Below are positions 17,367 through 46,049 of a DNA stretch of 64,000 bases, in pieces; within the stretch, counting starts at the first letter, position 1; every line of letters starts with the position of its first letter. A program made the position numbers and the translations under genes. The DNA is from Dictyostelium discoideum (lineage: Eukaryota): NCBI GenBank assembly GCA_000004695.1, contig CM000152.2, positions 5,248,001 through 5,312,000 of the forward strand, written 5' to 3'. The notes under the pieces were generated by a model. That model worked only from the letters and a program-made list of their open reading frames with translations. It made no database searches and had not been told where the DNA came from.

Positions 17367-18453
17367 CACTTGCAGCTTCACAATGACCAATATTAGATTT
17401 GAGTGATCCAATGAGTAATGGTTTAGATGGTGTTGATGTTGTTGATGAATTTAGAGCCATTGATACACCTTCTACTTCAATTGGATCACCTGTTGGTGTT
17501 CCTGTACCATGACATTCTACGAAACTAATATCTGATGCTTTCATATTTGCACTTTTCAATGCTAATTTGATATTATCAGATTGTGATTGTTTGGATGGTG
17601 AATAAAAGTTTGATTTATCATTTAAACCACCTCCATCGACATTTGAACTAAATGAATTAATTACACAATAAATATTATTACCATCTCTAATTGCGTCTGA
17701 TAATGGTTTTAAAATTACAATACCACAACTCTCTGCACGAATGTAACCATCTGCTTCTGAATCAAATGGTTTACATTTACCTTTTTTACTTAACATATTT
17801 AAAAATGAAAATGATTTTGAAACGTATGGATCAAGTAATAAACTGGCACCACCCACAATTGATAGATTTGAAGTACCATTTTGAATTGATTGAAAACCCA
17901 TTGTAATTGAATTCAATGATGAAGAACATGCTGTATCAATTGTCATTGATGGACCTCTGATATCATATGAAAATGATAATCTATTTGAAATGGTATGAAG
18001 AACATTTGATGCGAAATAATTTTCAGATGTTTCATTAAAGTCTCTATTTGTTGTTGAATAATCTAATGTTGAGCAACCAATGAAACAAGATGTATTTGAA
18101 CCTCTAATATCGATTGGATCGATGAATGCATCTTCTAATGCTTCCCATGTACACTTTAATAGTAATCTTGTTTGTGGATCCATTAGGGGTACTTCTGATG
18201 GATTGATTGCGAAATGAACTGGATCGAAATCACTCCATTCTTTTAATGGTAATAATCCACCAAATTTATTATTAACTTCACCGAGTAAATTGATATTGTC
18301 ACTCCATCTTTCTGATGTTTCAACAATACCACTGAATCCATTCTTTAAATTATTCCATAAATGTGAAACACTACCATTATTAATTGATTCTTTACCTTGT
18401 GGAATTCTAAATCCAATACCTACAATGGCAATTTCTTTATTTCCAAATTCCAT
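17367..18453 (-). CDS. pksA exon 1: ketosynthase (KS) domain N-terminal part
   Basis: ATG at 18453-18451 ([18 protein letters not shown]). KS motifs are DTACSSS (active Cys), [13 protein letters not shown] and [10 protein letters not shown]. The exon ends ...AGT G|GTAAGC (donor 17366-17361, phase 1) with a 91-nt intron. In this copy [12 protein letters not shown] is contiguous, so it lacks the KS intron found in pksB and pksC. Confidence 0.85.
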
Positions 18454-18989
18454 TTTCTTTTAATACACTAAAAACATTGATTCCAATAGTTGCTGATTAC
18501 ATAACGAAGGGAATGAGAGTGGACAATTAATTTTTAATCTTTTTATTTAAAAATATGGTGCTTTTTTGTTTTGTAAGGAATGTTAGAAATTATTACTATT
18601 TATTTATTTATTTTTATTTATATTTTAATATTATTACCATAAACACTTGTGTAAATAAATACATACATATAAATTATTTTTGTTAATTTTTTAAAAAGAA
18701 AAAAAAAAATTTTAAAAAAAAAAATTTAAAAAAAAAATGAAAAAAGAAAAAAAGAAAAAAATTATTAATAAAAAAAAAAAAAAAAAATAGAAAAAATATT
18801 ATTTAATAATAATTTAGTGGTGGTTTAAAACAATATATTTAATTTTATACTATATGATTGTTTAAAACAATTTGGAAATTATATTCTTTAATTTTTGGTT
18901 AATTTTTTTTTTTTTTTTTTTATCTTATTTTTTTTTTTTTTATAATTATTCTAATTAATTTAATATTATGATTTAAAAATAAAAAATTA

Positions 18990-19100
18990 ATATTTGAAAA
19001 GTGATTGGTGGTAAAAAAAAAAAAAAGTGATTGGTGGTAAAAAAAACTTACTTAACTTTTTTTTTTTTTCTTTTTTACCACCAATCTCTTTTCATATATT
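18990..19100. repeat. Direct repeat gtgattggtggtaaaaaaa x2 followed by inverted copy ttaccaccaatc (short hairpin-capable element).
   Basis: Read directly at 19000-19090. Confidence 0.6.
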
Positions 19101-19199
19101 AATTTTATATTTTTAAATCATAATATTAAATTAAAAAAAAATAAATTTATTTGCACAGAAAACTTAACAAAATATTAAAATATAATAAATAAAATTTAA

Positions 19200-19640
19200 T
19201 TTTAATAAAAGCTGTTAGTTCTTTTTTTAAATTAATAAATTTTATTAAAAAATAAGATAAAAATTAAAAAAAAAAAAAAAAATATATATTCAAAAATTAA
19301 ACTTATTTTATAATTAAAAAAAAAAAACATATTTTATTAAAATATAATTAATACTAAAAAATAAGATAATATAGGAATGTTAAAAATTAATTAAATAATA
19401 AATATTTAAAATTTATTATTTAATAAAAATTATTAAAAAATAAGATTTATTATAAAAATGTAACTTTAAAAAAAAAAATAATAAAATATATTGAAAAATA
19501 AGATGTATAATAAAAAAAAAAAATTTAAACATTTTATAATTTTAGATTTTATTATTAAACATCTTTAAAAATAAGATAAAAAATTCGTATGATAAATTTT
19601 AATAATTATAATCTTCTTTTGTTGGCTATAAAAGTAAGTT
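19200..19640. repeat. Degenerate tandem array (~60-110-bp spacing) of a unit containing catattttattaaaat...aaaaataagat; same family as 36600-37150 but inverted
   Basis: The core aaaaataagat recurs at roughly 19250, 19363, 19440, 19497 and 19570. The reverse-complement core atcttatttttt recurs at 36670-37105. Confidence 0.55.
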
Positions 19641-19974
19641 TTTAATTTTATTTTTATATTTAATAATATCTATTATTGTTTCGTTTTAATTTATTTTTAT
19701 TTTTTTTAATTTTTGTTTTTATAATTATACAATATCTATTATTATTATTTTTAATTTTTATTTTTATATCTATTATTAATTCATTTTAATTTTTTTTTTT
19801 TTTTTTAATTTTTATTTTTATTATAATGTAAAAAATTATGGTCACCCAAGTAGAAAATTAAAAGAAATAAATTTGTAAAAAAAAAGAAGCATTATTTTAT
19901 AATTCTTTATCTCTTTCTTTTAAAATAGTACCTTTTGTTCTTTTAATTTTTATTTTTTTCACGTAACAATGATA

Positions 19975-20802: not shown

Positions 20803-23800
20803 TTAATTTTTAAAAATATAGTTTATATGATTTTGAATCATTTTTTCATTGACCATTCCTCCTTCATATGAGTTCATTGATTGTAATAATTCTTTAGTTT
20901 TCTTTGAAACTCCAAATCCATGACCCAAGTTATAAATGTTATATAAATCATCTAATGAATGGAATGTTTTTAATTTTATACATGATAGAATCTTTGATTG
21001 ATTAATGATATTCTTCCATTGTTCATATTCAACCATTTCACATCCATATTGCTTTTCCAAGAATGAGAATGAAGGGTTCATTGCTGAAACTTCACTATTT
21101 AAACTATAGATATTTAATTGATTTGAAGATGATTTATTCCAACATTTTTCATTTCCAATCATTTTAATTGTATTTAAACCTATCCAACCAATTGGTGATG
21201 TTAATATGTTTTTATCAATTTTTGGATACTTTTTAACTGCATAACATGATTGAATGATTAACTGCAAGAAATCAGAATCATGACCAATACCTGTTTCTTC
21301 ATGTGAGAATATAATTGGTGGTCTAATTAACATTGATGGAATACCTCTTTTTGCTGCTTCTCTAAATAAATTTTCAACAACTACTTTACTTTTCATATAA
21401 CCACCTGGTAAATTATTAATATTTTCAATTGTTGGTATTACTGTTTCTTCATCAAATTCTTTACAATTTGGTGCATTAAAGAATACTGATATTGAACTAA
21501 ATCCTACGATTGGTTTTTGATAATCACCAGTTGTTGAAAGTTTAATTAATTCAATGAAACCACCAATATTTACAACTTTACTCTCTTCATAATTTGATGC
21601 CAAATTAATATCGGCACCTGAATTAATTATTAAATTGATTTGATTTGAAATATAATCAAAATCTAATTTTGATAATCCTAATAATGGTGATGCTAAATTA
21701 CCAACTATAACTTTAACTTTTGATAATTCAAATTCATTGTGAAGTTGATATAGTTTATGATGTTTCAAATTATTAATTATTGCATTGATTGGATTTGATT
21801 CTGATTTTTTATTTCTAATTAAACAATATACAACTGAACAATTTGGTGATTTAATTAAGTTTGATAATAAATGAACACCTAAAAATCCTGTTGCGCCTGT
21901 TAAAAATACTTTTGAATCATTTCTAAAATCAATTGGATTCATTTTAATTGCTTGAATTGATTCATCTAATTTCATTTCATTTCTCCAATATTCTAAAGTT
22001 GGTGCTGAATCTTTTTTAATAATATATTTTGATTTTCCTTTAGTTTCATTTGAATCTAGTTTTTTGATTTGTTCTAAAATAATTTGAATATTTACTCCAA
22101 TTGTATTATTTTGTAATTGTTGAAGTGTAATTACATTTGATTTATTTTCTTTATCAATGAAATTCTTTAGTTGTACTGAAGTTAATGAATCTGCTCCATA
22201 ATCACTTAAACGAATATCTGTGTTGATCTTTGATTGTTCAATTGATAAGAGTTCTGAAATTTTATATAAAAATTTCATTTGGATACTTTCTGATATACTA
22301 ATATTTTCACCACCATTACTGTCATTATCTTTTTCTTTGATTGAATTTAAAATGAAATCTAATTTTTGGAAAGTTGATGTTTCTGATGCGAATTTCTTAA
22401 TTGAATCATAGTTAAATTTACTAACAATTAAATTTGAGTATTTATTTGAATTTTGAAGTTGTAAATCTAATGAACCTAAAATTATATTTGTTGGAATTGG
22501 AATGAAACCTTGATCATCTAACATTTTTGAAACTGAATCATTTCTTGATACGAAACCTGATGATTTAATTGTTCCCCAATTTGTGCATGTTGATGGTAAA
22601 CCAATTGATTTACGATATCTTGATAATGAATCTAATACTAAATTTGCAGAAACATAACTACATTGGTTGAATGAGCCAAATAATGATGCAATCGATGATG
22701 CCATAACAAATTGTTTTAATTTCCATGATTTCTCAATTGAAATTTCATGTAAATTAATTGCACCCATCGTTTTAGCATTATGTGAAATATTTAATGATTC
22801 AATATCGATTTCTTCTACTTCTTTAGTTACTTGAGTGAATGCATAATGGAATATTGAATCAATGTTATCAATGGTTGGATTTTCTAATAAAATTTGATTA
22901 ATTGATTTTCTCATTTCAATTGGATCACCAACATCCACACTATTGAAATGGAATTTAGTGTTATTATCCTTTCTTGATATTGTTTTATTGATTAATAGTT
23001 CTAACTCCCATTTTAATGATGATTTTGATAAAATGATAATGTTTTCAAGTGATCCTGTTGGAGGTTTTGAAGGTGAATATTTAATTAGCCATTTTAAGAT
23101 TTCTAAAATAATACCTGATTGACCTGTAATAATTATATTTTTACCAATTGTATTTATTGTATCGATATTAAAATCATATTTTAATATTGTGTGATTCTTT
23201 TCATTGTTATCTGATTCAATGAGTTGATTTAATAATCCATCACTACCGATACTACCATTTGAACAACTATGATCTAATACAATTTTACCAATATGTTTTC
23301 TTTGATTAATATATTCAATTGCTTCTTTGACATCTTCAATCTGGAATGTTGTTATTGGAATTAGTTTTAATTTATTTTCATTTAAAGCATTTGAAATGGA
23401 TTTTAATAATCTTGAAACTACTTTTTTATTAATATGCATAAATTCAATATTATGATAACTCTTGTTGAATTTGAAATTGTTGAAATTTAAAAATTCATTA
23501 TTATTTAAATGGGTGATTGAGAGATCAATGATTTTACCTCTTTCTTTTAAACATAAAAAGTTTGAATGTGTAAATTCATTTGGTAATGTATTTATAATTA
23601 AATCTACTCCGTTGAATTTACCAGTTGTACCATAAAGTTGATTTAATTTTGATTTGATTTCATTGACATAGTTTTTATTTCTTGATGAGTAAATTCCAGT
23701 TATGAATGATCCATAATTATCAATTAAATATTGTTCTTTATCTTTTGAACCTACTGTGACGAAAACTGGTGATTTATGACCTTTCCATTTTAGTATTTCC

Positions 23801-26800
23801 AATGCTGCTAAACCAATACCACCTGTTGCTGAGTGAATTAAAATTACTTCATCATCATCGATATTAAAATTACCAATGTTGAACATACCATGAAGACATG
23901 TTGAAAAAATGATTGGTAATGATGCTGCTTCAATATGACTAATATTATTCGGTTTATGTGAAATCCAAAATGCATCAGTTATAACATGAGATGCAGTTGA
24001 ATCGTGTGATACACCAAATACATTATCGCCTACTTTAAATTCACAATTTTGATTTTCATCAGATATTCTTGTGATAATACCTGAAAATTCGAGACCAAGT
24101 GGATTTTTAGATATTGATATATTTTCATCAATAATGACTAAACCACGATAAATTAAATAATCTTTATAATTAATACCTGTTGCTAAAACTTTGACTTCAA
24201 TTTCATTCTTTTTTAATTTCTTTGGTTTTGATGCTAATTTATATTCTAAATTTGTTGAATCTAAGAGTGTCATAAAATCATTATCTTCGAATGAATTTGA
24301 ATTGAAGTTTGATTTTATATTCTTTTCATTCTTTAATATTTCATAATAAATTGAATTATTTCTAATTATATATTCTCTTTGAATATGGTTATTTGAATTT
24401 TCAATCAATTGATTAATGATTTTATTTAATAATGATGATACTGATAATTGATTATCAAAATCGATTGAATATAGATTTAAACTTGGAAATTCATTAAAGT
24501 ATCTTGCTGTACCTATTATTGATGATGATAAATAGTTTTTGATTTGTGAATCAATAGTAATTAATACATGTTTACATGTTAAACTATGTTTTAAAAGTTG
24601 TTGATTAATTTCAATATATTCCATTGTAATTTGTTTGAAATTATTCATTTCTAATTGTTCCATTGATTTAATAAAGTAAATTATTGAATCATTTGTTATT
24701 GAAGGTAATAGTTGATTAAATTCATTACTATTCGATATTATTTGCTTGGAATTGGTATGATTATTTGAAATTAATTTCATAAATTCATTTGTATATTTTG
24801 AATGTTTTTCACAATAAATGATAATATTATCATTTTTATTGTTTGGAACAACTGTTAATTCATTTGATAATATTGTTGATTTTTGTGATTGTATTACTTT
24901 ATTTGAATTTTGAATTTTGTTTTCATTAAAACCTACATTGATTAAATTATTGATATTAAATTGAATACCAATATCATCTCCAACTATTAATAATAGTCCA
25001 TTTGAAGAAAGAATATTAAATATTGATTTGATGATTGTTTCATCATCACCATCATTATTATTATTAATGATAATATCATAGTATGATGGTTTTAACTGGG
25101 TTATATCATTTTTAAAGATTAAACTTGAATCGTGTAAAGTTGGAAGTTTATCATTTGAATTATCAATGATTGTAAATTCAATATCGATTTCTTGTAAACT
25201 ATTATCATCGAAAATTTGATTTAATGCTCCAATGATTTGTTTTGATAATTCTAAATCTGAAAATGATTGTAAAATTCTAAAAATAATTTTTTCATTAATA
25301 ATTGGTTTGATTGTTTGTTTAATAATTTCTGTAACTGTATTGCTGCTGCTGCTGCTAAAAGTTTGATTATTATCAATGGATAAAATATTAACTAATGAAT
25401 CTTTACATTGTAAGTTATTTGTAAATAATTCAGTTGTAGGATTATTAATTAATAATTCATCAATCAATGGAAGAGTTGAATGGAATGATAAATGTTCTAT
25501 TTCCAATAACTTTGTACCATCTTCTAATAAAACTAAAACTGATGATATATAGCTATCTGATTCCAAGGAGATGAATTTTGATTGACAATAGATATTTTTA
25601 TATTTTAATTTGTCAGTTGGTATATTTTCAGAATAAACTTTTAAACCTTCAAGTCTTTCAAATACAAACTGGCTTGAATTTGTAATGAATCCAATAATGG
25701 CTTGTGCGCAATTATCTAATAGCGCTGTATTGAAAAATGATTTGTCAAATGTTTGATAAACAGGTTTACCATTGATATCAAAGTTTTCGTAGTTTATTTG
25801 TATTCTTGCAATTGTAAGATCATTGCCAAAGTGAAATTCTTCAATTCCTTGGAAAGTTCCTAAATGAGTGATACCTGATCTTAATTTAATGTACTTGTAT
25901 GCATCTTGTTTTGAAAGAGTTGTAAAATAACATTCTGATAGTAATTGATTTATATCATATTTTGATGAGTTATGATCTTTTAATGATATAAGTTGAAAGT
26001 TACCAGTACATGTTTGAACCCATTGATTTGTTTTATTATCTTTTATGTTGAATGTGACTCTATAATCAGTGTTACCTAATTGATAAACGTTGGTTTGTAA
26101 AGTATGTTTGACATTTTCTTTTAAAACAAATGGTGCTAAAAATTCCAAGTTATTAATTACAATATCTTGATTTGGGTAAAGTTTCATAATATTATCAGCA
26201 TATCCAATACCTGGGAAGTAATATTTTCCTTTTACAATATGGTCTTTTAAATATTTGAATGGATTTCTATTTATATCGATTATTGATTCATATGATTTGT
26301 TATTTGATGAATAGTTAATCATTGATTTACCTAAGTTGTTGAAAACGTTTGGTCCATTTAATCTATATTGTTCAAAGTTAATATCAACTTTCCAATAGTG
26401 TTGTTCGTCGAATTGATAGTTTGGTAAACTGATATTGACCTTGCTGTTTCTAATGGAACTGACATCATCATTGTGATTGAATTGACACTTGAAGTTTACA
26501 TCATAACCTAAACAATAAATTTGTGAAATTGTTGAATGAACTTCATCTAAATCATTGGAGTTTTTTTTGTTTGTTGATGTTAATACTGAAACTGAATTAA
26601 AGTAACTTGATGATTTTGGTATCATTTGTTTTAAATAAAATGATAAACTTGGATGTGGTGAAACTTCAATAAATATTAATTCATTACCAAGTTTATTATT
26701 TTCAATGTGTTGATATAAATTTGAAATAGTTTGAGAGAATCTGACAGGTTGTATTATATTTTCATAAACATAACTTGAATTGAATGGAGTAGTTTCATGA

Positions 26801-28042
26801 TTAAATAAATTGGTTGTAACTGTTGAAAATGTTGGAATTGTTGATTGTCTTGATGGTATATCTAATGGTAAAATTTCATTTTTAGTTGAATGTTGACTAC
26901 TTGTGTGGAATGATGATAATGAACCTAAAAATGCACAAAAGATATTATTTTCTTTTAAATCTAATGATATCTCTTTTAAAATATTTTCATTACCTGCAAT
27001 TACAATTGATGTTGGTGAATTATAACATGCAACTTCAATTGTTGGATATTTATTTGAATAAAGTTCAATAAATTCTGAATGACTGATATTGACTGATAAC
27101 ATTTTACCACAACCGTTTGTATTATTTTGAGAAATTGATCTGTGGTAAATTAATTTGCAAACTGTTTGGAAATCTACCATACCTGAACAATATGATGTTG
27201 CGATTTCACCTAAACTATGACCAACAATGAATGATACATTGATACCCCAATGTTTGTATAGTTCAAATAATGATATTTGTAACATTAATATTGATGGTTG
27301 AGCGATTATTGGTTGATGTATTGATATAATATCATCATCTTTAATTGATCTTAATTTATCTAAAACTGAGTATCCATAGTATTTACTTAACTCTTTATTG
27401 AATTTATCCATCGATGATCGGAATATTGGTTCACATTCATAAAGTTGTTGAGCCATTTTATTCCATTGTGAACCTTGACCTCCGAAAACAATAACAACTA
27501 ATGGTTGATTTCTTTTAATAGTAATATTTGAGGATTTGTCATTATTTGTTTTAAAGTACTTGTTTTTAGTTTTTAATTGATCCCAATTAATTGAAATTAA
27601 AACTGATCTTTGATATAATTTCTTTGATTTTGAGTAAATTTGATTCTTAACAAACTCTTTGAATGAATTTGTAGAAAGATTATTATCATTTATTATTAAG
27701 TCTTCATAATTTTTTAATGATTTTACTGAATTGGCTGAAAATGGTATTAAAAATCTTTGTTGTTGTTGTGATTCAATTGGATAACTAGGGTTATTACCAT
27801 TTTGATTGATTGTTCAATAAACTGTGATAAAACTAAACAACAATTTGAACCAGTTACACCAAAGTTATTAATAACCATTGATACTGGTTTTTCATTAATA
27901 TTTGTAAATGGTATTGCTTCTGTTACAACTTTAATATTCCAATCTTTAAAGTTAATCTTTGGATTTGGTTGATCAAAATTAACATTTGGTGCATAATGTT
28001 TATTTTTAAACATTAAACAACATTTGATTAATGATCCAACAC
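20803..28042 (-). pseudogene. pksB exon 3 (AT-DH-ER-KR-ACP-reductase), carrying a frameshift about 45 codons in that leads to a premature stop; probable PKS pseudogene, or a sequencing error in a 4-bp repeat.
   Basis: Acceptor tttcAG|gt at 28044-28043, joining AASG to [16 protein letters not shown]. The frame stops at 27747 (…[26 protein letters not shown]). pksC has gaacaatcaATCAatcaaaatggtaat (3x GATT units at 44541-44553), whereas pksB has gaacaatcaatcaaaatggtaat (2 units at 27803-27814). This 4-bp contraction shifts translation into the frame that then stays open for 2217 codons ([10 protein letters not shown]... is in-frame far upstream of its first Met). No GT...AG intron with a compensating phase is available. 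Confidence 0.5.
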
Positions 28043-28130
28043 CTGAAATTAATATTTATAAAATAAAAAAAAAGTTAGAATTAATATTTTTGGTTTTTTT
28101 TATTTTATTTTATAAATGGTTATAACTTAC

Positions 28131-28595
28131 CACTTGCAGCTTCACTATGACCAATATTAGATTTGAGTGATCCAATGAGTAATGGTTTAGATGGTGTTGA
28201 TGTTTTTGATGAATTTAGAGCCATTGATATGCCTTCTACTTCAATTGGGTCACCTGTTGGTGTTCCTGTACCATGACATTCTACGAAACTAATATCTGAT
28301 GCTTTCATATTTGCACTTTTCAATGCTAATTTGATATTATCAGATTGTGATTGTTTGGATGGTGAATAAAAGTTTGATTTATCATTTAAACCACCTCCAT
28401 CGACATTTGAACTAAATGAATTAATTACACAATAAATATTATTACCATCTCTAATTGCGTCTGATAATGGTTTTAAAATTACAATACCACAACTCTCTGC
28501 ACGAATGTAACCATCTGCTTCTGAATCAAATGGTTTACATTTACCTTTTTTACTTAGCATATTTAAAAATGAAAATGATTTTGAAATGTATGGAT
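28131..28595 (-). CDS. pksB exon 2 (KS domain, central part)
   Basis: Acceptor tataG|at at 28597-28596 (G+AT makes Asp in ...[24 protein letters not shown]). It ends AGT G|GTAAGT (donor 28130-28125). Motifs [10 protein letters not shown] and [10 protein letters not shown] are present. Confidence 0.8.
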
Positions 28596-28693
28596 CTATA
28601 TAAATAAATGTATATAATAATTAAAAAAAAAAGAAAAAGAAAATTGAAGAATAAAAATAAAATAATAAATGTTTAAATTCTGAATTAACATAC

Positions 28694-29315
28694 CAAGTAA
28701 TAAACTGACACCACCCACAATTGATAGATTTGAAGTACCATTTTGAATTGATTGAAAACCCATTGCAATTGAATTCAATGATGAAGAACATGCTGTATCA
28801 ATTGTCATTGATGGACCTCTGATATCATATGAAAATGATAATCTATTTGAAATGGTATGAAGAACATTTGATGCGAAATAATTTTCAGATGTTTCATTAA
28901 AGTCTCTATTTGTTGTTGAATAATCTAATGTTGAGCAACCAATGAAACAAGATGTATTTGAACCTCTAATATCGATTGGATCGATGAATGCATCTTCTAA
29001 TGCTTCCCATGTACACTTTAATAGTAATCTTGTTTGTGGATCCATTAGGGGTACTTCTGATGGATTGATTGCGAAATGAACTGGATCGAAATCACTCCAT
29101 TCTTTTAATGGTAATAATCCACCAAATTTATTATTAACTTCACCGAGTAAATTGATATTGTCACTCCATCTTTCTGATGTTTCAACAATACCACTGAATC
29201 CATTCTTTAAATTATTCCATAAATGTGAAACACTACCATTATTAATTGATTCTTTACCTTGTGGAATTCTAAATCCAATACCTACAATCGCAATTTCTTT
29301 ATTTTTAAATTCCAT
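28694..29315 (-). CDS. pksB exon 1 (KS N-terminus with TACSSS active site)
   Basis: ATG at 29315-29313 ([15 protein letters not shown]). It ends CTT G|GTATGT (donor 28693-28688) with a 98-nt A/T-rich intron. pksA lacks this intron. Confidence 0.8.
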
Positions 29316-34379: not shown

Positions 34380-34900
34380 AACAGTTCTTTGTTTTTAATT
34401 AGAGAATTATCGATGGTGTCAATAATCTCATCAAGGAAGGACCCATGGGAATTACGTTCTCGGTAGAAATGTTCTTGATATAGCCAAAGAAACGCTCAAT
34501 GGGATTCAACTCTGGGAATAGGAAGGAAGAAATATCAATTGAACCGAATATTGATTAAACAATTCAAATAGTGCATTTAAAGCTTCGATACCACCGTGAA
34601 TTGGAGCATTGTCCATTACCAATAATAAACCAGGCTTGCAAAATCCACTTTCCAAAAGTTCTCTAACATATTGAAAGAAGTCTTCGGTATTATTGGTTTT
34701 ATCACGGATTTTATACAAACAATCATCCAAACAGATGGTGAAAAACCCATGTAGGTCTCAGAAATGCTGGTGCTATTAGTAACATAAACCGGCTCTCCAA
34801 TTGGTCCAACATCTTTAGATCTCCTTAATTCTAATAAAAAACTTTATTAGTTTTAATTATTTATTTTGTAATAAATAAAAAAAAATTAATAAATAGTTAT
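34380..34900 (-). pseudogene. Tc1/mariner-superfamily (DDE_3) transposase remnant with frameshifts.
   Basis: The minus-strand translation reads ...DFFQYVRELLESGFCKPGLLLVMDNAPIHGGIEALNALFELFNQYSVQLIFLPSYSQS*. Frame +1 continues as YSPELNPIERFFGYIKNISTEN. The FLPxYSPELNPIE box after a DNAP(x)H Asp is the C-terminal signature of Tc1/mariner/pogo transposases. The sequence is broken by at least one frameshift and has no clean ATG. Confidence 0.6.
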
Positions 34901-34982
34901 ATAATTACCTTATAATGCTAATAGTGGAATACAGAAAGGATGGAAAGACAAATATTTAAAAAAAAAAATTTATTAAAAAAAG

Positions 34983-35015
<33 letters not shown>

Positions 35016-35084
35016 AGTACAAATATTTATATTCAATCTAAAATAATAAAATATACCTCTAGAAGAAAATGAGCATTCATTCTT

Positions 35085-35335
35085 TTAGGTTTCATTATAT
35101 TATTACTATTATTACTACTATATTGCTATTGCTATCACTATTGTTACTATTATTACTACTATATTGCTATTGCTGTTACTATTATTACTATTATTACTAC
35201 TATATTGCTCTTGCTATTACTGTTATTACTATTATTACTATTATTACTACTATAATGCTATTGCTATTACTATTATTACTATTATTACTATTACCATTAC
35301 TACTATATAGCTATTGCTATAACTATTGATATTAA
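35085..35335. repeat. Minisatellite built from attactattattactactatattgctattgct(a/g)t(c/t)ac units.
   Basis: Visible tandem array. The overlapping poly-L/Y ORFs are artefacts. Confidence 0.8.
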
Positions 35336-36123
35336 TATTTCTATTTCTATTACTATTATATGTATAATTAATTATATTATTATTTTGGTTTTATTAATTA
35401 TGTTTTTTAAATTGTTTTTATTATTATAAACTAAAAGTGGTTTTTTTTATTTAAAATAAAAAATGATCATTTGATTTTAACCAAAAATATAGATGTGATG
35501 GTTTAATATTATAATGGCCATAGTTTTTATAAATGAACAATTGTATTTCATTTTATTTATAGTTGGTTAAAATAATTAGTGAATTTTTTTAACTGTAAAA
35601 CATTTCCCCCTTTTTTTCAAATAAAAAGAAAATTAAAAAAAAAAAAATCAAATTATATTAAATTAAAAACAGTTGGAGATATTTTCCCACTTTTTTTTAA
35701 ATTAAAAAAAGAAAAATAAAAATAAAATAAAAATAAAATAAAAACAAAATCTTTGATCAAAAATATATTAACTCGGTTGCAATGAAATATTTTAAGTATT
35801 TAAATAGATTTTTTTTTTTTTAACTTTAATTATTTTATTCACTCATATTTTATTTATCTATTATTTTTTTTTTCTTTTCATATTTATTTTATTTATTATT
35901 TATTATTTATTAATATCATTTTCGTTTATATATTTAAACATACCTCAATTTTATAATGGACTCAACCAAACTATATTGTAATCACAAACTCAATAGCAAT
36001 TGCACCAGCCAAAAAGAAGTGGTGCTACACCATGCCAACCATGCCCAGGATATCCTAAAAAATTAAAAATTTGTTTGAGTTGTTCCTTTCATCCAAAGGT
36101 AATTTGTTTATAAAATAAACAAT

Positions 36124-36243
<120 letters not shown>

Positions 36244-36599
36244 TAAAATAAATAAAATTTTTTTTATTTTCAAAGAAATTTTAGTATAAAACATTTTTAT
36301 TGTGTAGTTTTAAATTTTTAAAATTAAAAACAAATAAATATTCATAATAATTAACTTAGAAAGTTTTTTAATATTTTTTAGTGAGTTTAAACCCTTTTTT
36401 TATTTTTTTAATTTTTTTTTTTATGATTAATTTTCTAAAAACGCACAATAAAAAAAAAAAAAAAAAGTAAAAAAAAAAAAAAGTTTGAAAATATAGTAAA
36501 AATGGATAAAAAAATAAAAAAAAAACCAAGTTCAAAATTAATAAAATTTTGCTTTTTTTCGCATATTTATTCTTATAATATATCTTATTTTTATTAATT

Positions 36600-37150
36600 C
36601 AATTCCTATATTTTTAAAAATAATAAAAAGTTTCATTTAATATATAAATTTTTTTTTTTTATAAAATTTATTATTTTTTATCTTATTTTTTAGGGATTAC
36701 TTATATTTTAATAAAATATGTTGAATATTATAAAATTTTCCAATTTAGAATTTATTTTATTATTTTTTAAACATCTTATTATTAAAACCATAATTAATAA
36801 AATTTATAACCTTCTTATATATTATCTCATTTTTTTAGTATTTATTATATTTTAATAAAATATGTTAAAAACTATATAATATTTCAATTTTTAATATATT
36901 TTATTATTTTTTTTTTATTATTTTTTATCTTATTTTTTCATATATTTTATTAAAAATAATAAAGGTTACATTATTTATAAATAATCTTATTTTTTAGTAT
37001 TAATTAAATTTTAATAAAAAATGCTATTTTTTTTTTTATAATAAGTTTCATTTTTTTATAAATTTTATAAATTTTATTTTTTTTATTTTTTTGTTATAAT
37101 TAATCTTATTTTTTAATAATTTTTATTAATTTATAAAATAGCTTTACAAA
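36600..37150. repeat. Degenerate tandem array with atcttatttttt...attttaataaaatatg units; inverted copy of the 19200-19640 family
   Basis: Cores recur at about 36670, 36828, 36925, 36985 and 37105. Confidence 0.55.
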
Positions 37151-37532
37151 CTTTTATTAAAATTTAATTTAATTAATTATATTTTAACATTTTATAAGGT
37201 TTTTTTTTCCCGTGATATCTTAATTAAACAATTCATAATATTGGCAAATATAAAATTAAAAATAAAAAATAAAAAATAAAAAATAAAAAAATAATATATA
37301 AATAAAAAAATAAAATAAAATAAATATGAATAATAAAAATTTAGAAATCTACACAAAAAAAGGTGTTTTGCATTTATGTAGGGCTATATTATTTTTTTTT
37401 TTTTATTCTCAACCCAAAACACCTTTTTATACTTTTCACAAATATAATAAAAAAAAAATTAAAAAAAAATTACTGTTGAATTTTAAGAAAATAAAAAAAC
37501 TAATAAAAAATGAGTTTAAAAGATTTGTTTAT

Positions 37533-40500
37533 TTAATTTTTAAAAATATAGTTTATATGATTTTGAATCATTTTTTCATTAACCATTCCTCCTTCATATG
37601 AGTTCATTGATTGTAATAATTCTTTAGTTTTCTTTGAAACACCAAATCCATTACCCAAGTTATAAATATTATATAAATCATCTAATGAATGGAATGTTTT
37701 TAATTTTACACATGATAGAATCTTTGATTGATTAATGATATTCTTCCATTGTTCATATTCAACCATTTCACATCCATATTGCTTTTCCAAGAATGAGAAT
37801 GAAGGGTTCATTGCTGAAACTTCACTATTTAAACTATAGATATTTAATTGATTTGAAGATGATTTATTCCAACATTTTTCATTTCCAATCATTTTAATTG
37901 TATTTAAACTTATCCAACCAATTGGTGATGTTAATATGTTTTTATCAATTTTTGGATACTTTTTAACTGCATAACATGATTGAATAATTAATTGGAAGAA
38001 ATCAGAATCATGACCAATACCTGTTTCTTCATGTGAGAATATAATTGGTGGTCTAATTAACATTGATGGAATACCTCTTTTTGCTACTTCTCTTAATAAA
38101 TTTTCAACAACTACTTTACTTTTCATATAACCACCTGGTAAATTATTAATATTTTCAATTGTTGGTATTACTGTTTCTTCATCAAATTCTTTACAATTTG
38201 ATGCATTAAAGAATACTGATACTGAGCTAAATCCTACAATTGGTTTTTGATAATCACCAGTTGTTGAAAGTTTAATTAATTCAATGAAACCACCAATATT
38301 TACAACTTTACTCTCTTCATAATTTGATGCTAAATTAATATCGGCACCTGAATTAATTATTAAATTAATTTGATTTGAAATATAATCAAAATCTAATTTT
38401 GATAATCCTAATAATGGTGATGCTAAATTACCAACTATTACTTTAATTTTTGATAATTCAAATTCATTGTGAAAGTGATATAGTTTATGATGTTTCAAAT
38501 TATTAATTATAGCATTGATTGGATTTGGTTCTGATTTTTTATTTCTAATTAAACAATATACAACTGAACAATTTGGTGATTTAATTAAGTTTGATAATAA
38601 ATGAACACCTAAAAATCCGGTTGCACCTGTTAAAAATACTTTTGAATCATTTCTAAAATCAATTGGATTCATTTTAATTGCTTGAATTGATTCATCTAAT
38701 TTCATTTCATTTCTCCAATAGTCTAAAGTTGGTGCTGAATCTTTTTTAATAATATTTTTTGATTTTCCTTTAGTTTCATTTGAATCTAGTTTTTTGATTT
38801 GTTCTAAAATAGTTTGAATATTCATATCAATTGTATTATTTTGTAACTGTTGAAGTGTAATTACATTTGATTTAATATCTTTATCAATGAAATTCTTTAA
38901 TTGTACTGAAGTTAATGAATCTGCTCCATAATCACTTAAACGAATATCTGTGTTGATCTTTGATTGTTCAATTGATAAGAGTTCTGAAATTTTATTTAAA
39001 ATCTTTGTTTGTATACTTTCTGATACACTATTTTCACCACCATTACTATCATTATCTTTTTCTTTGATTGAATTTAAAATGAAATCTAATCTTTGGAAAG
39101 TTGATGTTTCTGATGATAATTTCTTAATTGAATCATAGTTAAATTTACTAACAATTAAGTTTGAATTTTTATTTGAATTTTGAAGTTGTAAATCTAATGA
39201 ACCTAAAATTATATTTGTTGGAATTGGAATGAAACCTTGATCATCTAACATTTTTGAAACTAATTCATTTCTTGATACAAAACCTGCTGATTTAATTGCA
39301 CCCCAATTTGTACATGTTGATGGTAAACCAATTGATTTACGATATCTTGATAATGAATCTAATACTAAATTTGCAGAAACATAACTACATTGGTTGAATG
39401 AGCCAAATAATGATGCAATCGATGATGCCATAACAAATTGTTTTAATTTCCATGATTTCTCAATTGAAATTTCATGTAAATTAATTGCACCCATCGTTTT
39501 AGCATTATGTGAAATATCTAATGATTCAATATCGATTTCTTCTACTTCTTTAGTTATTTGAGCGAATGCATAATGGAATATTGAATCAATGTTATCAATA
39601 TTTGGATTTTCTAATAAAATTTGATTAATTGATTTTCTCATTTCAATTGGATCACCAACATCTACACTCTTGAAATGGAATTTAGTGTTATTATCCTTTC
39701 TTGATATTGTTTTATTGATTAATAGTTCTAACTCCCATTTTAATGATGATTTTGATAAAATGATAATGTTTTCAAATGATTCTGTTGGTGAATATTTAAT
39801 TAACCATTTTAAGATTTCTAAAATAATACCTGATTGACCTGTAATAATTATATTTTTACCAATTATATTTTTTGTATCAATTTTGAAATCATATTTTAGT
39901 ATTGTGTGATTCTTTTCATTGTTATCTGATTCAATGAGTTGATTTAATAATCCATCACTACCGATACTACCATTTGAACAACTATGATCTAATACAATTT
40001 TACCAATATGTTTTCTTTGATTAATATATTCAATTGCTTCTTTGACATCTTCAATCTGGAATGTTGTTATTGGAATTGGTTTTAATTTGTTTTCATTTAA
40101 AGCATTTGAAATGGATTTTAATAATCTTGAAACTACTTTTTTATTAATATGCATAAGTTCAATATTATGATAACTCTTGTTAAATTTGAAATTGTTGAAA
40201 TTTAAAAATTCATTGTTATTTAAATGGGTAATTGAAAGATCAATGATTTTACCTCTTTCTTTTAAACATAAAAAGTTTGAATGTGTAAATTCATTTGGTA
40301 ATGTATTTATAATTAAATCTACTCCGTTGAATTTACCAGTTGTACCATAAAGTTGATTTAATTTTGATTTGATTTCATTTACATAGTTTTTATTTCTTGA
40401 TGAATAAATACCAGTTATGAATGATCCATAATTATCAATTAAATATTGTTCTTTATCTTTTGAACCTACTGTGACGAAAATTGGTGATTTATGACCTTTC

Positions 40501-43500
40501 CATTTTAATATTTCTAATGTTGCTAAACCAATACCACCTGTTGCTGAGTGAATTAAAATTACTTCATCATCATCGATATTAAAATTACCAATGTTGAACA
40601 TACCATGAAGACATGTTGAAAAAATGACTGGTAATGATGCTGCTTCAACATGACTAATATTCTCAGGTTTATGTGAAACATAAAGTACATCAGCTATAAC
40701 ATGTGAAGCGGTTGTGTCACAAGCTATACCAAATACATTATCGCCTACTTTAAATTCACAATTTTGATTCTCATTAGATATTCTTGTGATAATACCTGAA
40801 AATTCGAGACCAAGTGGATTTTTAGATATTGATACATTTTCATCAATAACAACTAAACCACGATAAATTAAATAATCTTTATAATTAATACCTGTTGCTA
40901 AAACTTTGACTTCAATTTGATTCTTTTTTAATTTCTTTGGTTTTGATGCTAATTTGTATTCTAAATTTGTTGAATCTAAGAGTGTCATAAAGTCATTATC
41001 TTCGAACGAATTTGAATTGAAGTTTGATTTTATATTCTTTTCATTCTTTAATATTTCATAATAAATTGAATTATTTCTAATTATATATTCTCTTTGAATA
41101 TGGTTATTTGAATTTTCAATCAATTGATTAATGATTTTATTTAATAATGATGATATTGATAATTGATTATCAAAATCGATTGAATATAGATTTAAACTTG
41201 GAAATTCATTAAAGTATCTTGCTGTACCTATTATTGATGATGATAAATAGTTTTTGATTTGTGAATCAATAGTAATTAATACATGTTTACATGTTAAACT
41301 ATGTTTTAAAAGTTGTTGATTAATTTCAATATATTCCATTGTAATTTGTTTGAAATTATTCATTTCTAATTGTTCCATTGATTTAATAAAGTAAATTATT
41401 GAATCATTTGTTATTGAAGGTAATAATTGATTAAATTCATTAATATTCGATATTATTGTTTGTTTGCAGCTGATATGATTATTTGAAATTAATTTCATAA
41501 ATTCATTTGTATATTTTGATTCTTTTTCACAATAAATTATAATATTATCATTTTTATTGTTTGGAACAACTGTTAATTCATTTGATAATATTGTTGATTT
41601 TTGTGATTGTATTACTTTATTTGACTTTTGAATTTTGTTTTCATTAAAACCTAAATTTATTAAACTATCGATATTGTATTTATCACCAATATCATCTCCA
41701 ATTATTAATAATAATCCATTTGAAGAAAGAATATTAAATATTGATTTGATGATTGTTTCATCATCACCATCATTATTATTATTAATGATAATATCATAGT
41801 ATGATGGTTTTAACTGGGTTATATCATTTTTAAAGATTAAACTTGAATCGTGTAAAGTTGGAAGTTTATCATTTGAATTATCAATAATTGTAAATTCTAT
41901 ATCGATTTCTTGTAAACTATTATCATCGAAAATTTGATTTAATGTTTCAATGATTTGTTTTGATAATTCTAAATCTGAAAATGATTGTAAAATTCTAAAA
42001 ACAATTTTTTCATTTATAATTGGTTTGATTGTTTGTTTAATAATTTCTGTAACTGTATTGCTGCTGCTGATGCTGCTAAAAGTTTGATTATTATCAATGG
42101 ATAAAATATTAACTAATGAATCTTTACATTGTAAATTATTTGTAAATAATTCAGTTGTAGGATTATTAATTAATAAACTATTAAGTAATGGAAGAGTTGA
42201 ATGTAAAGATATACAATCCATTTCTAACAACTTTGTACCATCTTCTAATAAAACTAAAACTGATGATTTATAGCTATCTGATTCCAAGGAGATGAATTTT
42301 GCTTGACAATAGATATTCTTATATTTTAATTTGTCAGTTGGTATATTTTCAGAATAAACTTTTAAACCTTCAAGTCTTTCAAATACAAACTGGCTTGAAT
42401 TTGTAATGAATCCAACTATAGTTTGTGAACAACTATCTAATAAAGCTGTATTGAAAAATGATTTATCGTATGTTTGATAAACTGGCTTACCATCGATATC
42501 AAAGTTTTCAGTGTTTACTTGAATTTTAGATATAATACAATCATTACCAAAATACAACTCTTCAATTCCTTGGAAAGCTCCTAAATGAGTGATTCCAGTT
42601 ATTGATCTGGAATGTTTGTAAACTTCTTGTTTTGAAAGGGTTGTAAAATTACATTCTGATAGCAATTGATTTATATCATATTTAGATGAGTGATCATTAT
42701 TATTATCTTTTAGTGATATAAGTTGAAAGTTACCAGTACATGTTTGAACCCATTGATTTGTTTTATTATCTTTTATGTTGAATGTAACTCTATAATCAGT
42801 GTTACCTAATTGATAAACATTGGTTTGTAAAGTATGTTTGACATTTTCTTTTAAAACAAATGGTGCTAAAAATTCCAAGTTATTAATTATAATATCTTGA
42901 TTTGGGTAAAGTTTCATAATATTATCAGCATATCCAATACCTGGGAAGTAATATTTTCCTTTTACAATATGGTCTTTTAAGTATTTGAATGGATTTCTAT
43001 TTATATCGATTATTGATTCATATGATTTGTTATTTGATGAATAGTTAATCATTGATTTACCTAAACTGTTGAAAACATTTGGTCCATTTAATCTATATTG
43101 TTCAAAGTTAATATCAACTTTCCAATAGTGTTGTTCGTCGAATTGATAGTTTGGTAAACTGATATTGACCTTGCTGTTTCTAATGGAACTGACATCATCA
43201 TCATTGTGATTGAATTGACACTTGAAGTTTACATCATAACCTAAACAATAAATTTGTGAAATTGTTGAATGAATTTCATCTAAATCATTGGAGTTCTTTT
43301 TGTTTGTTGATGTTAATACTGAAACTGAATTAAAGTAACTTGATGATTTTGGTATCATTTGTTTTAAATAAAATGATAAACTTGGATGTGGTGAAACTTC
43401 AATAAATATTAATTCATTACCAAGTTTATTATTTTCAATGTGTTGATATAAATTTGAAATAGTTTGAGAGAATCTGACAGGTTGTATTATATTTTCATAA

Positions 43501-44785
43501 ACATAACTTGAATTGAATGGAGTAGTTTCATGATTAAATAAATTAGTTGTAACTGTTGAAAATGTTGGAATTCTTGATTGTTTTGATGGTATATCTAATG
43601 GTAAAATTTCATTTTTAGTTGAATGTTGACTACTTGTGTGGAATGATGATAATGAACCTAAAAATGCGCAAAAGATATTATTTTCTTTTAAATTTAATGA
43701 TATCTCTTTTAAAATATTTTCATTACCTGCAATTACAATTGATGTTGGTGAATTATAGCATGCAACTTCAATTGTTGGGTATTTATTTGAATAAAGCTCA
43801 ATAAATTCTGAATGACTGATATTAACTGATAACATTTTACCACATCCATTTGTATTATTTTGAGAAATTGATCTGTGATAAATTAATTTACAAACTGTTT
43901 GGAAATCTACCATACCTGAACAATATGATGTTGCGATTTCACCTAAACTATGACCAACGATGAATGATACATTGATACCCCAATGTTTGTATAGTTCAAA
44001 TAATGATATTTGTAACATTAATATCGATGGTTGAGCGATTATTGGTTGATGTATTGATATAATATCATCATCTTTAATTGATCTTAATTTATCTAAAACT
44101 GAGTATCCATAGTATTTACTTAACTCTTTATTGAATTTGTCCATCGATGATCTGAATATTGGTTCACATTCATAAAGTTGTTGAGCCATTTTATTCCATT
44201 GTGAACCTTGACCTCCGAAAACAATAACAACCAATGGTTGATTTCTTTTAATTGTAATATTTGAGGATTTGTCATTATTTGTTTTAAAGTACTTGTTTTT
44301 AGTTTTTAATTGATCCCAATTACTTGAAATTAAAACTGATCTTTGATATAGTTTCTTTGATTTTGAGTAAATTTGATTCTTAACAAACTCTTTGAATGAA
44401 TTTGTTGAAATTTTAATATCATTTATTATTAAGTCTTCATAATTTTTTAATGATTTTACTGAATTGGCTGAAAATGGTATTAAAAATCTTTGTTGTTGTT
44501 GTTGTTGTGATTCGGCAGGATAACTATGACCATTACCATTTTGATTGATTGATTGTTCAATAAACTGTGATAAAATTAAACAACAATTTGAACCAGTTAC
44601 ACCAAAGTTGTTAATAACCATTGATACTGGTTTTTCATTATTATTTGTAAATGGTATTGCTTCTGTTACAACTTTAATATTCCAATCTTTAAAGTTAATC
44701 TTTGGATTTGGTTGATCAAAATTAACATTTGGTGCATAATGTTTATTTTTAAACATTAAACAACATTTGATTAATGATGCAACAC
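37533..44785 (-). CDS. pksC exon 3: reducing type I PKS (AT-DH-ER-KR-ACP-terminal reductase), intact
   Basis: Acceptor aatAG|gt at 44787-44786 ([20 protein letters not shown]). It has the same motif set as pksA, is more than 95% identical to pksA and pksB at the protein level, and stops at 37533. Confidence 0.85.
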
Positions 44786-44864
44786 CTATTAATATTTATA
44801 AAATGAAAAAAAGAGTTAAAATTAATGTTTTTTATTTTTTTTTTTATAAATGGTTACAACTTAC

Positions 44865-45329
44865 CACTTGCAGCTTCAGAATGACCAATATTAGATTTGA
44901 GTGATCCAATGAGTAATGGTTTAGATGGTGTTGATGTTTTCGATGAATTTAGAGCCATTGATACACCTTCTACTTCAATTGGATCACCTGTTGGTGTTCC
45001 TGTACCATGACATTCTACGAAACTAATATCTGATGCTTTCATATTTGCACTTTTCAATGCTAATTTGATATTATCAGATTGTGATTGTTTGGATGGTGAA
45101 TAAAAGTTTGATTTATCATTTAAACCACCTCCATCGACATTTGAACTAAATGAATTAATTACACAATAAATATTATTACCATCTCTAATTGCGTCTGATA
45201 ATGGTTTTAAAATTACAATACCACAACTCTCTGCACGAATGTAACCATCTGCTTCTGAATCAAATGGTTTACATTTACCTTTTTTACTTAGCATATTTAA
45301 AAATGAAAATGATTTTGAAATGTATGGAT
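44865..45329 (-). CDS. pksC exon 2 (KS central part)
   Basis: Acceptor tataG|at at 45331-45330 and donor G|GTAAGT at 44864-44859, identical to the pksB structure. Confidence 0.8.
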
Positions 45330-45427
45330 CTATATAAATAAATGTATATAATAATTAAAAAAAAAAGAAAAAGAAAATTGAAGAATAAAAATAAAATAAT
45401 AAATGTTTAAATTCTGAATTAACATAC

Positions 45428-46049
45428 CAAGTAATAAACTGACACCACCCACAATTGATAGATTTGAAGTACCATTTTGAATTGATTGAAAACCCATTGC
45501 AATTGAATTCAATGATGAAGAACATGCTGTATCAATTGTCATTGATGGACCTCTGATATCATATGAAAATGATAATCTATTTGAAATGGTATGAAGAACA
45601 TTTGATGCGAAATAATTTTCAGATGTTTCATTAAAGTCTCTATTTGTTGTTGAATAATCTAATGTTGAGCAACCAATGAAACAAGATGTATTTGAACCTC
45701 TAATATCGATTGGATCGATGAATGCATCTTCTAATGCTTCCCATGTACACTTTAATAGTAATCTTGTTTGTGGATCCATTAGGGGTACTTCTGATGGATT
45801 GATTGCGAAATGAACTGGATCGAAATCACTCCATTCTTTTAATGGTAATAATCCACCAAATTTATTATTAACTTCACCGAGTAAATTGATATTGTCACTC
45901 CATCTTTCTGATGTTTCAACAATACCACTGAATCCATTCTTTAAATTATTCCATAAATGTGAAACACTACCATTATTAATTGATTCTTTACCTTGTGGAA
46001 TTCTAAATCCAATACCTACAATTGCAATTTCTTTGTTTTCTAATTTCAT
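45428..46049 (-). CDS. pksC exon 1 (KS N-terminus)
   Basis: The true ATG is at 46049-46047 ([15 protein letters not shown]). The ORF track's start at 46064 is a TTG. Donor G|GTATGT at 45427-45422 with a 98-nt intron. Confidence 0.8.

Follow-up and report, generated by a model that had tools for sequence, protein, structure and literature searches.

The intron-less state of the Dictyostelium discoideum polyketide synthase (PKS) gene pks19 most probably goes back to one old, precise intron loss that was later relocated among tandem paralogs, with the intron being restored to pks21 by gene conversion from a paralog. The window, the whole stretch of 64,000 nt analysed here (D. discoideum AX4, GenBank assembly GCA_000004695.1, contig CM000152.2, positions 5,248,001 to 5,312,000), holds three tandem PKS genes, all on the minus strand. 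The genes and the introns under study are as follows, in coordinates of the window:

10026..18453, minus strand: pks19 (DDB_G0282027; pksA of the original prediction), spliced translation identical to Q54T36
18453..17367 and 17275..10026, minus strand: coding exons of pks19
20803..29315, minus strand: pks20 (pksB)
37533..46049, minus strand: pks21 (DDB_G0282029; pksC), spliced translation identical to B0G138
46049..45428, 45329..44865 and 44785..37533, minus strand: coding exons of pks21
28596..28693, minus strand: intron 1 of pks20, 98 nt, GTATGT...TATAG, phase 1
45330..45427, minus strand: intron 1 of pks21, 98 nt, phase 1, same sequence as in pks20
17831..17832, minus strand: precise intron-loss junction of pks19, TTACTTG|ATCC, after CDS nt 622, codon 208 (Asp), phase 1
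17276..17366, minus strand: intron 2 of pks19, AASG|V site, phase 1, 91 nt, retained
28043..28130, minus strand: intron 2 of pks20, AASG|V site, phase 1, 88 nt
44786..44864, minus strand: intron 2 of pks21, AASG|V site, phase 1, 79 nt

Spliced pks19 translates to an open 2778-aa protein, every residue of which matches Q54T36 (Probable polyketide synthase 19), and spliced pks21 gives an open 2779-aa protein that matches B0G138 (Probable polyketide synthase 21) in the same way; the intron/exon structure was therefore already contained in the reference annotation. The Pfam domain order in pks19 is KS-AT-DH-ER-KR-ACP-terminal reductase. A 4-bp deletion between 27803 and 27802 shifts the frame of pks20, which has probably become a pseudogene in the lineage of AX4 and AX2. 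No tRNA turned up when the window was scanned, and a literature search for pks19 in Dictyostelium found no paper. With only the 420-aa N-terminus as query, a protein search yielded fragmentary, short gene models but no close relatives, and the full-length query was used instead.

The original prediction held that pksB and pksC have a common 98-nt phase-1 intron in the KS domain, and both inserts were located. In pks20, exon 1 runs to 28694 and exon 2 begins at 28595 (45428 and 45329 in pks21), and the two inserts are 100% identical with an A+T content of 88.8%. The intron lies in the N-terminal half of the ketosynthase domain and interrupts a GAT (Asp) codon after its first base, between ...GGVSLLL and DPYISKSF; its length is not a multiple of three, and its retention would shift the frame and lead to a stop at codon 240. 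All 19 homologous inserts that were scored start with GTATG and end with AG, and their lengths range from 76 to 117 nt across copies while the flanking exons are conserved. The 98-nt segment displays the properties of a U2-type intron (GT...AG ends, a Dictyostelium-like 5' splice site, high A+T, the need for removal to keep the frame, and a position that is kept while sequence and length drift); judged by these properties it appears to behave as a real spliceosomal intron, and its splicing is predicted.

In pks19, TTACTTG|ATCC matches the exon ends in pks20 and pks21 at every base, no exonic indel is present, and the gene reads ...[15 protein letters not shown] uninterrupted across the intron 1 site. 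The exact absence that had been proposed for pksA is thus confirmed, and the two caveats attached to it, that pksA might be a chimeric assembly or a retro-copy, fall away. The independent AX2-214 assembly (Nanopore/Illumina) is collinear with positions 1-28453 of the window, and shows zero differences in pks19, including the junction and the flanks, or in the covered part of pks20; because this assembly reproduces the intron-less junction, the absence is not an assembly artefact. The downstream AASG|V intron, said to be common to all three genes, was found in each of them at phase 1. The pattern search for intron 2 missed several copies, which were judged by gene-length accounting and alignments. 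An origin of pks19 as a processed retrocopy was ruled out by its retained intron 2, its location within the array, and 5' and 3' flanks that are orthologous to those of other genomes.

It is scarcely credible, then, that pks19 is mis-assembled, chimeric or retro-copied, or that the 98 nt are not an intron. Near-identical tandem repeats are generally prone to assembly collapse, and no specific support for such an artefact was found; the agreement of AX2-214, the retained intron 2, the positionally orthologous flanks, and the frame, composition (89% A+T), GT-AG ends and length drift of the 98-nt segment and its homologs all stand against it. A gain of the intron in the ancestor of pks20 and pks21 likewise has next to no chance of being right. 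Within the window alone, an identical intron in two of three copies would suit a gain; however, the three full D. citrinum copies and the two of D. firmibasis all have intron 1 at the same codon and phase, with GTATG..AG ends, and, placed identically, it also occurs in a 48%-identical paralog from the D. discoideum clade and in two genes of D. purpureum. It was also found in the eight other discoideum-clade copies that could be scored (8/8), a scoring that left out one ACTFIZ copy cut before the site and at least one further copy, and a degenerate D. citrinum PKS remnant adjoining Vault still has the 3' end of the intron. Both sequence and length have drifted apart among these introns, which is what an old intron should show. 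Because outgroup species and distant paralogs all have the intron at the identical site and phase, the difference is a loss and not a gain: intron 1 is an ancient, ancestral phase-1 intron of Dictyostelium type I PKS genes, and its absence is a precise loss. As between loss and gain, the alternative posed for pksA and the pksB/pksC ancestor is thereby settled in favour of loss.

The intron-less copy does not occupy the same place in every genome. An intron-less copy at the pks19 position was seen only in AX4/AX2, whereas the intron-less genes of four wild discoideum-clade genomes (ACTFIR, ACTFIW, ACTFIY and ACTFIZ) are, by their 5' and 3' flanks, positional orthologs of pks21, a position that adjoins a Vault-like gene. 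The positional orthologs of pks19 in ACTFIR, ACTFIW and ACTFIY, again assigned by flanks, have intron 1. One intron-less copy is known in each discoideum-clade array examined, regardless of copy number (from 2 up to at least 6), and no intermediate arrays with 0 or 2 intron-less copies were seen among the examined genomes. With the polarity of the species tree (M4B/S6B outside AX4 plus CR116C/OT3A) taken from PMC12745789 and from identity levels, the intron-less pks21 position is common to M4B- and S6B-type genomes, which indicates that this state is ancestral for the clade. Judged by its diverged flanks, each pks copy can be paired with a positional ortholog in two or more of the four diverged wild genomes, so that the high coding identity of the copies reflects conversion as well as age; the description of the family as recently duplicated is accordingly doubtful.

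Segment-wise neighbor-joining (NJ) analysis revealed that the 5' 2.6 kb of pks19, pks20 and pks21 evolves in concert. In this region the copies of one genome group together, and in the flanks and some stretches inside the genes the grouping follows array position. The three AX4 copies grouped together with 100% bootstrap in CDS 12-2600 and with 95% in CDS 4600-5100; grouping by position was obtained in the 5' flank (92-100%), CDS 3100-3600 (98-100%), CDS 7100-8330 (99%) and the 3' flank (100%). In a Sawyer-type permutation test, all three AX4 pairs gave P<=0.003. The genes display both a mosaic phylogeny (NJ bootstraps, sliding identity) and identical tracts longer than expected, as gene conversion would leave them. 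One such stretch is a candidate gene-conversion tract between pks20 and pks21:

28250..29288, minus strand: tract of pks20, 1,039 bp, 100% identical to pks21 44984..46022 and spanning intron 1
44984..46022, minus strand: tract of pks21, 1,039 bp, identical to pks20 28250..29288

The intron 1 site lies inside the concerted 5' segment, and the intron pattern of the window would record conversion history and not duplication order. The proposal that the intron could be used to date the duplications is therefore not upheld, since its site falls within CDS 12-2600 and the intron-less copy is the pks21 ortholog in four other genomes. The suggestion that pksA diverged first is not supported either: in segments that still carry an orthology signal, pks19 and pks20 form a pair with pks21 outside it, as in CDS 3100-3600 (88% versus 95% identity) and in CDS 6600-7100 (pks19 + pks20 pair, 96% bootstrap). 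Duplication order was also sought in three-way site patterns over the window (156 sites unique to pksA, 101 to pksB and 175 to pksC), and this approach was rejected because the patterns are uninformative without an outgroup and the genes are mosaic.

Around the junction, pks19 differs from the other two copies in a short and sharply bounded island:

17793..17904, minus strand: island of pks19 differing from pks20 and pks21, 112 nt, with 4 substitutions (CDS 550, 608, 631 and 661) and the intron indel

On its upstream side the island is bordered by 522 bp of perfect identity with pks20 and pks21, on its downstream side by at least 307 bp, and the clustering of 4 differences inside 112 nt of an otherwise identical 941-nt stretch has a probability of about 2e-4. 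At three of the four substituted sites of the island, pks19 has the states (C608, G631 and T661) that ACTFIR and ACTFIW show in their intron-less copies at the pks21 position, and pks19 is without the variant run at CDS 611-654 that is found in its positional orthologs in these same two genomes; one variant of the run, C643, recurs in ACTFIY, cit_g3 and fir_g2. C608 (GCC, Ala) was present in 4/5 distinct intron-less copies and in 0/10 of the intron-containing discoideum-clade copies scored. Its use to diagnose the intron-less haplotype was given up, and it was kept as supporting evidence only, because the intron-less ACTFIZ copy has T608 and D. firmibasis has C608; this match with D. firmibasis means that C608 may be ancestral rather than a derived marker. 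In a 140-nt segment around the junction, the three intron-less copies were grouped with only 44% bootstrap. The argument for a single origin involves few sites, and the conversion donor of pks19 is gone from AX4.

From the array positions, the island and the identical tract, we infer a single origin of the intron-less state as well as the direction and number of the conversion events. Intron 1 would have been excised precisely and once, at the pks21 position, on the stem lineage of the D. discoideum clade after D. citrinum had branched off. Ectopic (interlocus) gene conversion would continually move sequence between the tandem paralogs and so keep their 5' 2.6 kb homogeneous in any one genome. 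Two such events would have altered the pattern in AX4/AX2 (the NC4 lineage): the intron-less patch would have been copied into pks19, where it remains as the 112-nt unconverted island, and pks21 would have regained the intron from an intron-containing paralog, leaving the 1,039-bp tract identical to pks20 as its trace. Two independent precise losses, one in the wild lineages, in their copy at the pks21 position, and one in NC4 pks19, with NC4 pks21 either never having lost the intron or having regained it, are an unlikely substitute for this history. D. discoideum often loses introns precisely (441 cases; PMC4683709), the local signal uniting the intron-less copies is weak at 44% bootstrap, and C608 is not universal among them; however, the same rare event would be needed twice at one site, together with the clustering of the island differences, and the match of three of these to the intron-less copies of other lineages, the lack of the CDS 611-654 variants from pks19, and the intron-less pks21 position common to M4B- and S6B-type genomes all speak against it. 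More improbable still is the idea that the 98-nt heterology acts as a local barrier to gene conversion, with the intron-less junction being an old island in an otherwise homogenised region, and that the one known intron-less copy per array could point to selection, and not chance, as what preserves the pair of intron-less and intron-containing copies, for instance because the intron makes the paralogs differ in expression.

As for the excision that began the relocated loss, recombination with cDNA made from spliced mRNA, the model favoured in Dictyostelium, may well have been responsible. Ma et al. 2015 reported 441 precise intron losses in D. discoideum with patterns that favour the reverse-transcription model, and elevated GC in the exons flanking lost introns (PMC4683709); at the pks19 site, the upstream 50 nt are 36% GC and the downstream 50 nt 18%, and the whole CDS is 25.6% GC. 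A genomic deletion by NHEJ or a microhomology-mediated route is a possible but less probable origin. It is favoured by the shortness of the intron, by its location close to the 5' end of a very long mRNA and by the survival of the adjacent intron, the last two being atypical for the cDNA model. Against a deletion, the excision is nucleotide-exact and the intron boundaries have just 1 nt of microhomology (G|GT...AG|A), where short boundary repeats, and often imprecise ends, would be the mark of such events; boundary repeats were also not enriched at lost Dictyostelium introns, and 2 imprecise losses were counted against 643 precise ones (PMC4683709). The pks19 loss does not show the 3' bias and adjacent co-loss expected of the cDNA model, as the site lies 7.5% into the 8.3-kb CDS and intron 2, 465 nt downstream, is kept. 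This 5' site and the retained intron 2 lower confidence in cDNA recombination, yet they are compatible with it, in that a short conversion tract would fit.

In D. discoideum, iterative type I PKS genes reportedly lie in tandem clusters, each of 2-5 very similar copies, some of them pseudogenes, with promoters far more diverged than the coding regions (the survey ascribed to Zucko et al. 2007). The present array resembles those clusters in its near-identical tandem genes, diverged promoters and pseudogene content; as far as we found, that survey has no analysis of intron presence/absence or of segment-wise concerted evolution against other genomes. In Chironomus globin genes, intron presence/absence is said to have spread among paralogs by gene conversion, in work ascribed to Hankeln et al. 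1997. Intron presence-absence polymorphisms also occur in Drosophila and Daphnia. The pks genes are like these cases in that an intron state was moved between copies by homologous recombination, so that an apparent gain is a copy from a paralog; they differ in organism and gene family, in the inference of both directions within one array (a transfer of the loss and a regain), and in the clear unconverted island around the heterology in pks19. Similar to the losses described by Ma, Che, Porceddu & Niu 2015 (BMC Evol Biol 15:286; PMC4683709), a short AT-rich ancestral intron was exactly removed with no exonic indel, and outgroup dictyostelids show its ancestral presence. Unlike that survey, which covered orthologs across four species, the present case concerns a tandem multigene family in which paralogs differ in having the loss and lineages differ in the paralog position that has it, and the 5' location of the pks19 loss and the retention of the adjacent intron depart from the reported trends (PMC4683709). 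Both DDB_G0282027 and DDB_G0282029 are absent from the supplements of that survey (PMC4683709).

The gene models studied here are public, and precise intron loss and the concerted evolution of tandem genes are established. What is new is modest, a natural case in which an intron-less state appears to have hopped between paralogs and one paralog to have regained its intron by conversion, and it became visible thanks to several long-read genomes of close relatives. For the PKS clusters of Dictyostelium, the case is a caution that intron presence/absence and raw paralog identity cannot order duplications. In a haploid organism with efficient homologous recombination, the array would also be a tractable system for studying the limits of conversion tracts around a defined heterology.

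The window (23% G+C) carries three tandem polyketide synthase (PKS) paralogs on the minus strand, each ~8.4 kb long and sharing 95-96% mutual identity.

PKS genes of the window
10026-18453, minus strand, pks19; spliced translation is Q54T36
20803-29315, minus strand, middle gene (pks20), a frameshifted paralog
37533-46049, minus strand, pks21; spliced translation is B0G138

With introns removed, the first gene yields an open 2778-aa protein that exactly matches the public D. discoideum AX4 entry 'Probable polyketide synthase 19' (DDB_G0282027, Q54T36), with the domains KS (aa 6-386), AT, DH, ER, KR, ACP and a terminal NAD_binding_4 reductase in that order, and the third an open 2779-aa protein that exactly matches 'Probable polyketide synthase 21' (DDB_G0282029, B0G138); both gene models were already present in the reference annotation. 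The gene between them is presumably pks20. Relative to pks19 and pks21, its frame is shifted past ~codon 455 by a 4-bp deletion between 27803 and 27802, which is found identically in the AX2-214 assembly; because the positional ortholog in the wild isolate ACTFIW is unbroken (2771 aa), pks20 looks like a lineage-specific pseudogene. The pks20-pks21 spacer (29320-37530) is ~8 kb in AX4 versus ~1 kb in ACTFIW. Inside it lie an Integrase_H2C2 fragment (30421-30699, E=6e-9), 83%-identical inverted repeats (29911-30219 and 33045-33356) and an S/P/K-repeat ORF (31335-32345), and the spacer is probably the remnant of an inserted retrotransposon. Low-complexity blocks distant from the PKS genes (183-830 and 5366-5948) are internally repetitive and 70-81% alike, with a weaker relative at 35092-35478.

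As the original prediction had described, a 98-nt insert in the KS domain (intron 1) was found in pks20 (28693..28596) and pks21 (45427..45330). The two inserts are 100% identical (GTATGT...TATAG, 88.8% A+T) and break the Asp-208 codon past base 1 (phase 1), with GGVSLLL before and DPYISKSF after; retention of the 98 nt would bring a stop at codon 240. In pks19 these 15 residues are continuous across the junction 17832|17831. A phase-1 intron at AASG|V (intron 2) is likewise common to all three genes, its copies (91, 88 and 79 nt in pks19, pks20 and pks21, respectively) differing by substitutions and indels.

Intron 2 in the three genes
17276-17366, minus strand, pks19, AASG|V
28043-28130, minus strand, pks20, AASG|V
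44786-44864, minus strand, pks21, AASG|V

The AX2-214 Nanopore/Illumina assembly (GCA_054883475.1, locus L006), which belongs to the genome set of PMC12745789, is collinear with window positions 1-28453 and matches them without a single difference throughout pks19 and as much of pks20 as it covers. Because it reproduces the intron-less junction, the missing intron in pks19 is real and not an assembly artefact, and because pks19 keeps intron 2 and its flanks, a retrocopy is ruled out as well.

Homologous arrays were obtained from six other genomes.

Comparison genomes and fetched loci
D. citrinum: L001, L011
D. firmibasis: L002
D. discoideum wild isolate ACTFIR: L004
D. discoideum wild isolate ACTFIW: L005
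'D. cf. discoideum' ACTFIZ: L003, L009
'D. cf. discoideum' ACTFIY: L010

ACTFIR/ACTFIW are the CR116C/OT3A pair of PMC12745789 and ACTFIZ/ACTFIY the M4B/S6B pair; the assignment of locus tags to strains is one that we infer. When these pks genes were compared, as had been proposed, intron 1 was found, always as GTATG...AG of 76-117 nt and with site and phase unchanged, in each of the three full-length D. citrinum copies, in the two from D. firmibasis and in 8/8 other scoreable discoideum-clade copies (leaving out L003 g0 of ACTFIZ, which stops just short of the site, and at least one further annotated ACTFIZ copy). A 48%-identical paralog (L007) and two PKS genes of D. purpureum (L008) carry it there too, in the same phase. 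Because D. citrinum, D. firmibasis, D. purpureum and L007 share site and phase, intron 1 is, on these comparisons, ancient, and its absence from pks19 a precise loss. Of the two options originally left standing, loss is thus upheld; gain in an ancestor of pks20/21 is in practice excluded, since outgroups and a distant paralog hold the intron. L007 lacks intron 2, as does the one L008 gene reaching the AASG|V site, which marks this intron as apparently specific to the pks19-21 clade, and it may be a clade-specific gain. Its length is 79-94 nt in the measured discoideum-clade copies versus 240-284 nt in D. citrinum (L001/L011).

Array copy number is two in ACTFIR and ACTFIY, three in AX4 and ACTFIW, at least six in ACTFIZ, three plus a remnant in D. 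citrinum and two plus a remnant in D. firmibasis. Degenerate PKS fragments occur within or next to arrays in D. firmibasis (L002 7879-8600), D. citrinum (L011 2975-3951) and ACTFIZ (L003 20616-21662). In every discoideum-clade array examined, one intron-less copy is known, with two ACTFIZ copies unscorable. As judged by flanks, this copy adjoins a Vault-like gene, as the positional ortholog of pks21, in 4/4 wild genomes (ACTFIR, ACTFIW, ACTFIY and ACTFIZ), and the positional orthologs of pks19 hold intron 1 in ACTFIR, ACTFIW and ACTFIY. The reverse arrangement, an intron-less pks19 with an intron-bearing pks21, was found only in AX4/AX2 among the genomes compared.

Grouping of copies along the genes
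5' flank: by array position, bootstrap 92-100%
CDS 12-1090 and 1190-2600: by genome, three AX4 copies together, bootstrap 100%
CDS 12-1090 and 1190-2600: by genome, five ACTFIR/ACTFIW copies together, bootstrap 97-98%
CDS 3100-3600: by array position, bootstrap 98-100%
CDS 4600-5100: by genome (AX4 copies), bootstrap 95%
CDS 7100-8330: by array position, bootstrap 99%
3' flank: by array position, bootstrap 100%

Permuting variable sites in a Sawyer-type test gave P<=0.003 for each of the three AX4 pairs. This mosaic reflects concerted evolution through interlocus gene conversion, with the intron 1 site (CDS 622|623) inside a homogenised segment. Paralog similarity ends sharply at the ATG (flanks 18454-18800, 29316-29620 and 46050-46920) and at the stop codon (3' ends 10025, 20802 and 37532), and each flank still aligns with its positional counterpart from other genomes; conversion seems not to extend beyond the transcribed or coding region. 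Zucko et al. reportedly described in 2007 PKS clusters that are nearly identical with diverged promoters.

Tracts around the junction
28250-29288 and 44984-46022, minus strand, pks20-pks21 identical tract (1,039 bp, 100%) spanning intron 1
17904-17793, minus strand, pks19 island of 112 nt with substitutions at CDS 550, 608, 631 and 661 plus the intron indel

On either side of its island, pks19 equals both paralogs, upstream over 522 bp (18426-17905) and downstream over at least 307 bp (17792-17486); the chance of all four differences landing in one specified 112-nt stretch out of 941 nt is ~2e-4 (calculated post hoc). Of the four island states, three (C608, G631, T661) match the intron-less copies of ACTFIR and ACTFIW, and the CDS 611-654 variants that mark the positional orthologs of pks19 in these isolates, of which C643 recurs in ACTFIY, cit_g3 and fir_g2, are missing from pks19. 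C608 occurs in 4/5 distinct intron-less copies and 0/10 intron-containing discoideum-clade copies scored; the intron-less ACTFIZ copy has T608, D. firmibasis has C there, and as a marker of the intron-less haplotype C608 is suggestive only. Set beside these shared and missing states, an independent second loss in pks19 appears improbable.

Gene conversion is known to move intron states between paralogs. The history that we consider most likely has four steps. The ancestral array held the ancient KS-domain intron, and its precise loss would have occurred once, in the Vault-proximal copy before the AX4, CR116C/OT3A and M4B/S6B lineages diverged; this loss would postdate the split from D. citrinum, because the degenerate Vault-proximal PKS remnant of that species retains the intron end (...ATACAG|ATCC). 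The tandem copies would have kept converting one another, and in the NC4 lineage an intron-less patch would have been copied into pks19 and an intron-containing paralog would have overwritten pks21, the 1,039-bp tract being the putative trace of this step and the intron 'regained' by paralog conversion. The comparisons demonstrate the ancestry of the intron, the precision of its loss and the mosaic; we infer the single origin of the intron-less state, the direction and number of conversions and, from PMC12745789, the polarity of the species tree.

Excision was exact, with only 1 nt of microhomology common to both boundaries, which fits removal by recombination with cDNA from spliced mRNA, the model favoured by Ma et al. 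2015 (PMC4683709) for D. discoideum, where 441 precise losses are recorded. However, the position of intron 1 near the 5' end (7.5% of CDS) and the retention of pks19 intron 2 merely 465 nt away are atypical for this model, and we therefore regard it as somewhat favoured rather than firm.

A literature search found no report of this pks19-21 intron case, which adds a fairly clean new example to known event types and is not a surprising discovery. The original prediction that pks19 diverged first runs against the signal, as wherever orthology signal survives pks19 and pks20 pair together and pks21 stands apart: identity in CDS 3100-3600 is 88% with pks21 as outlier versus 95% for pks19-pks20, and CDS 6600-7100 groups pks19 with pks20 (bootstrap 96%). 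Nor does the intron pattern date the duplications, given that the genes are mosaic, pks21 is the outlier and the intron-less copy lies elsewhere in wild genomes. The case thus carries a useful cautionary message.
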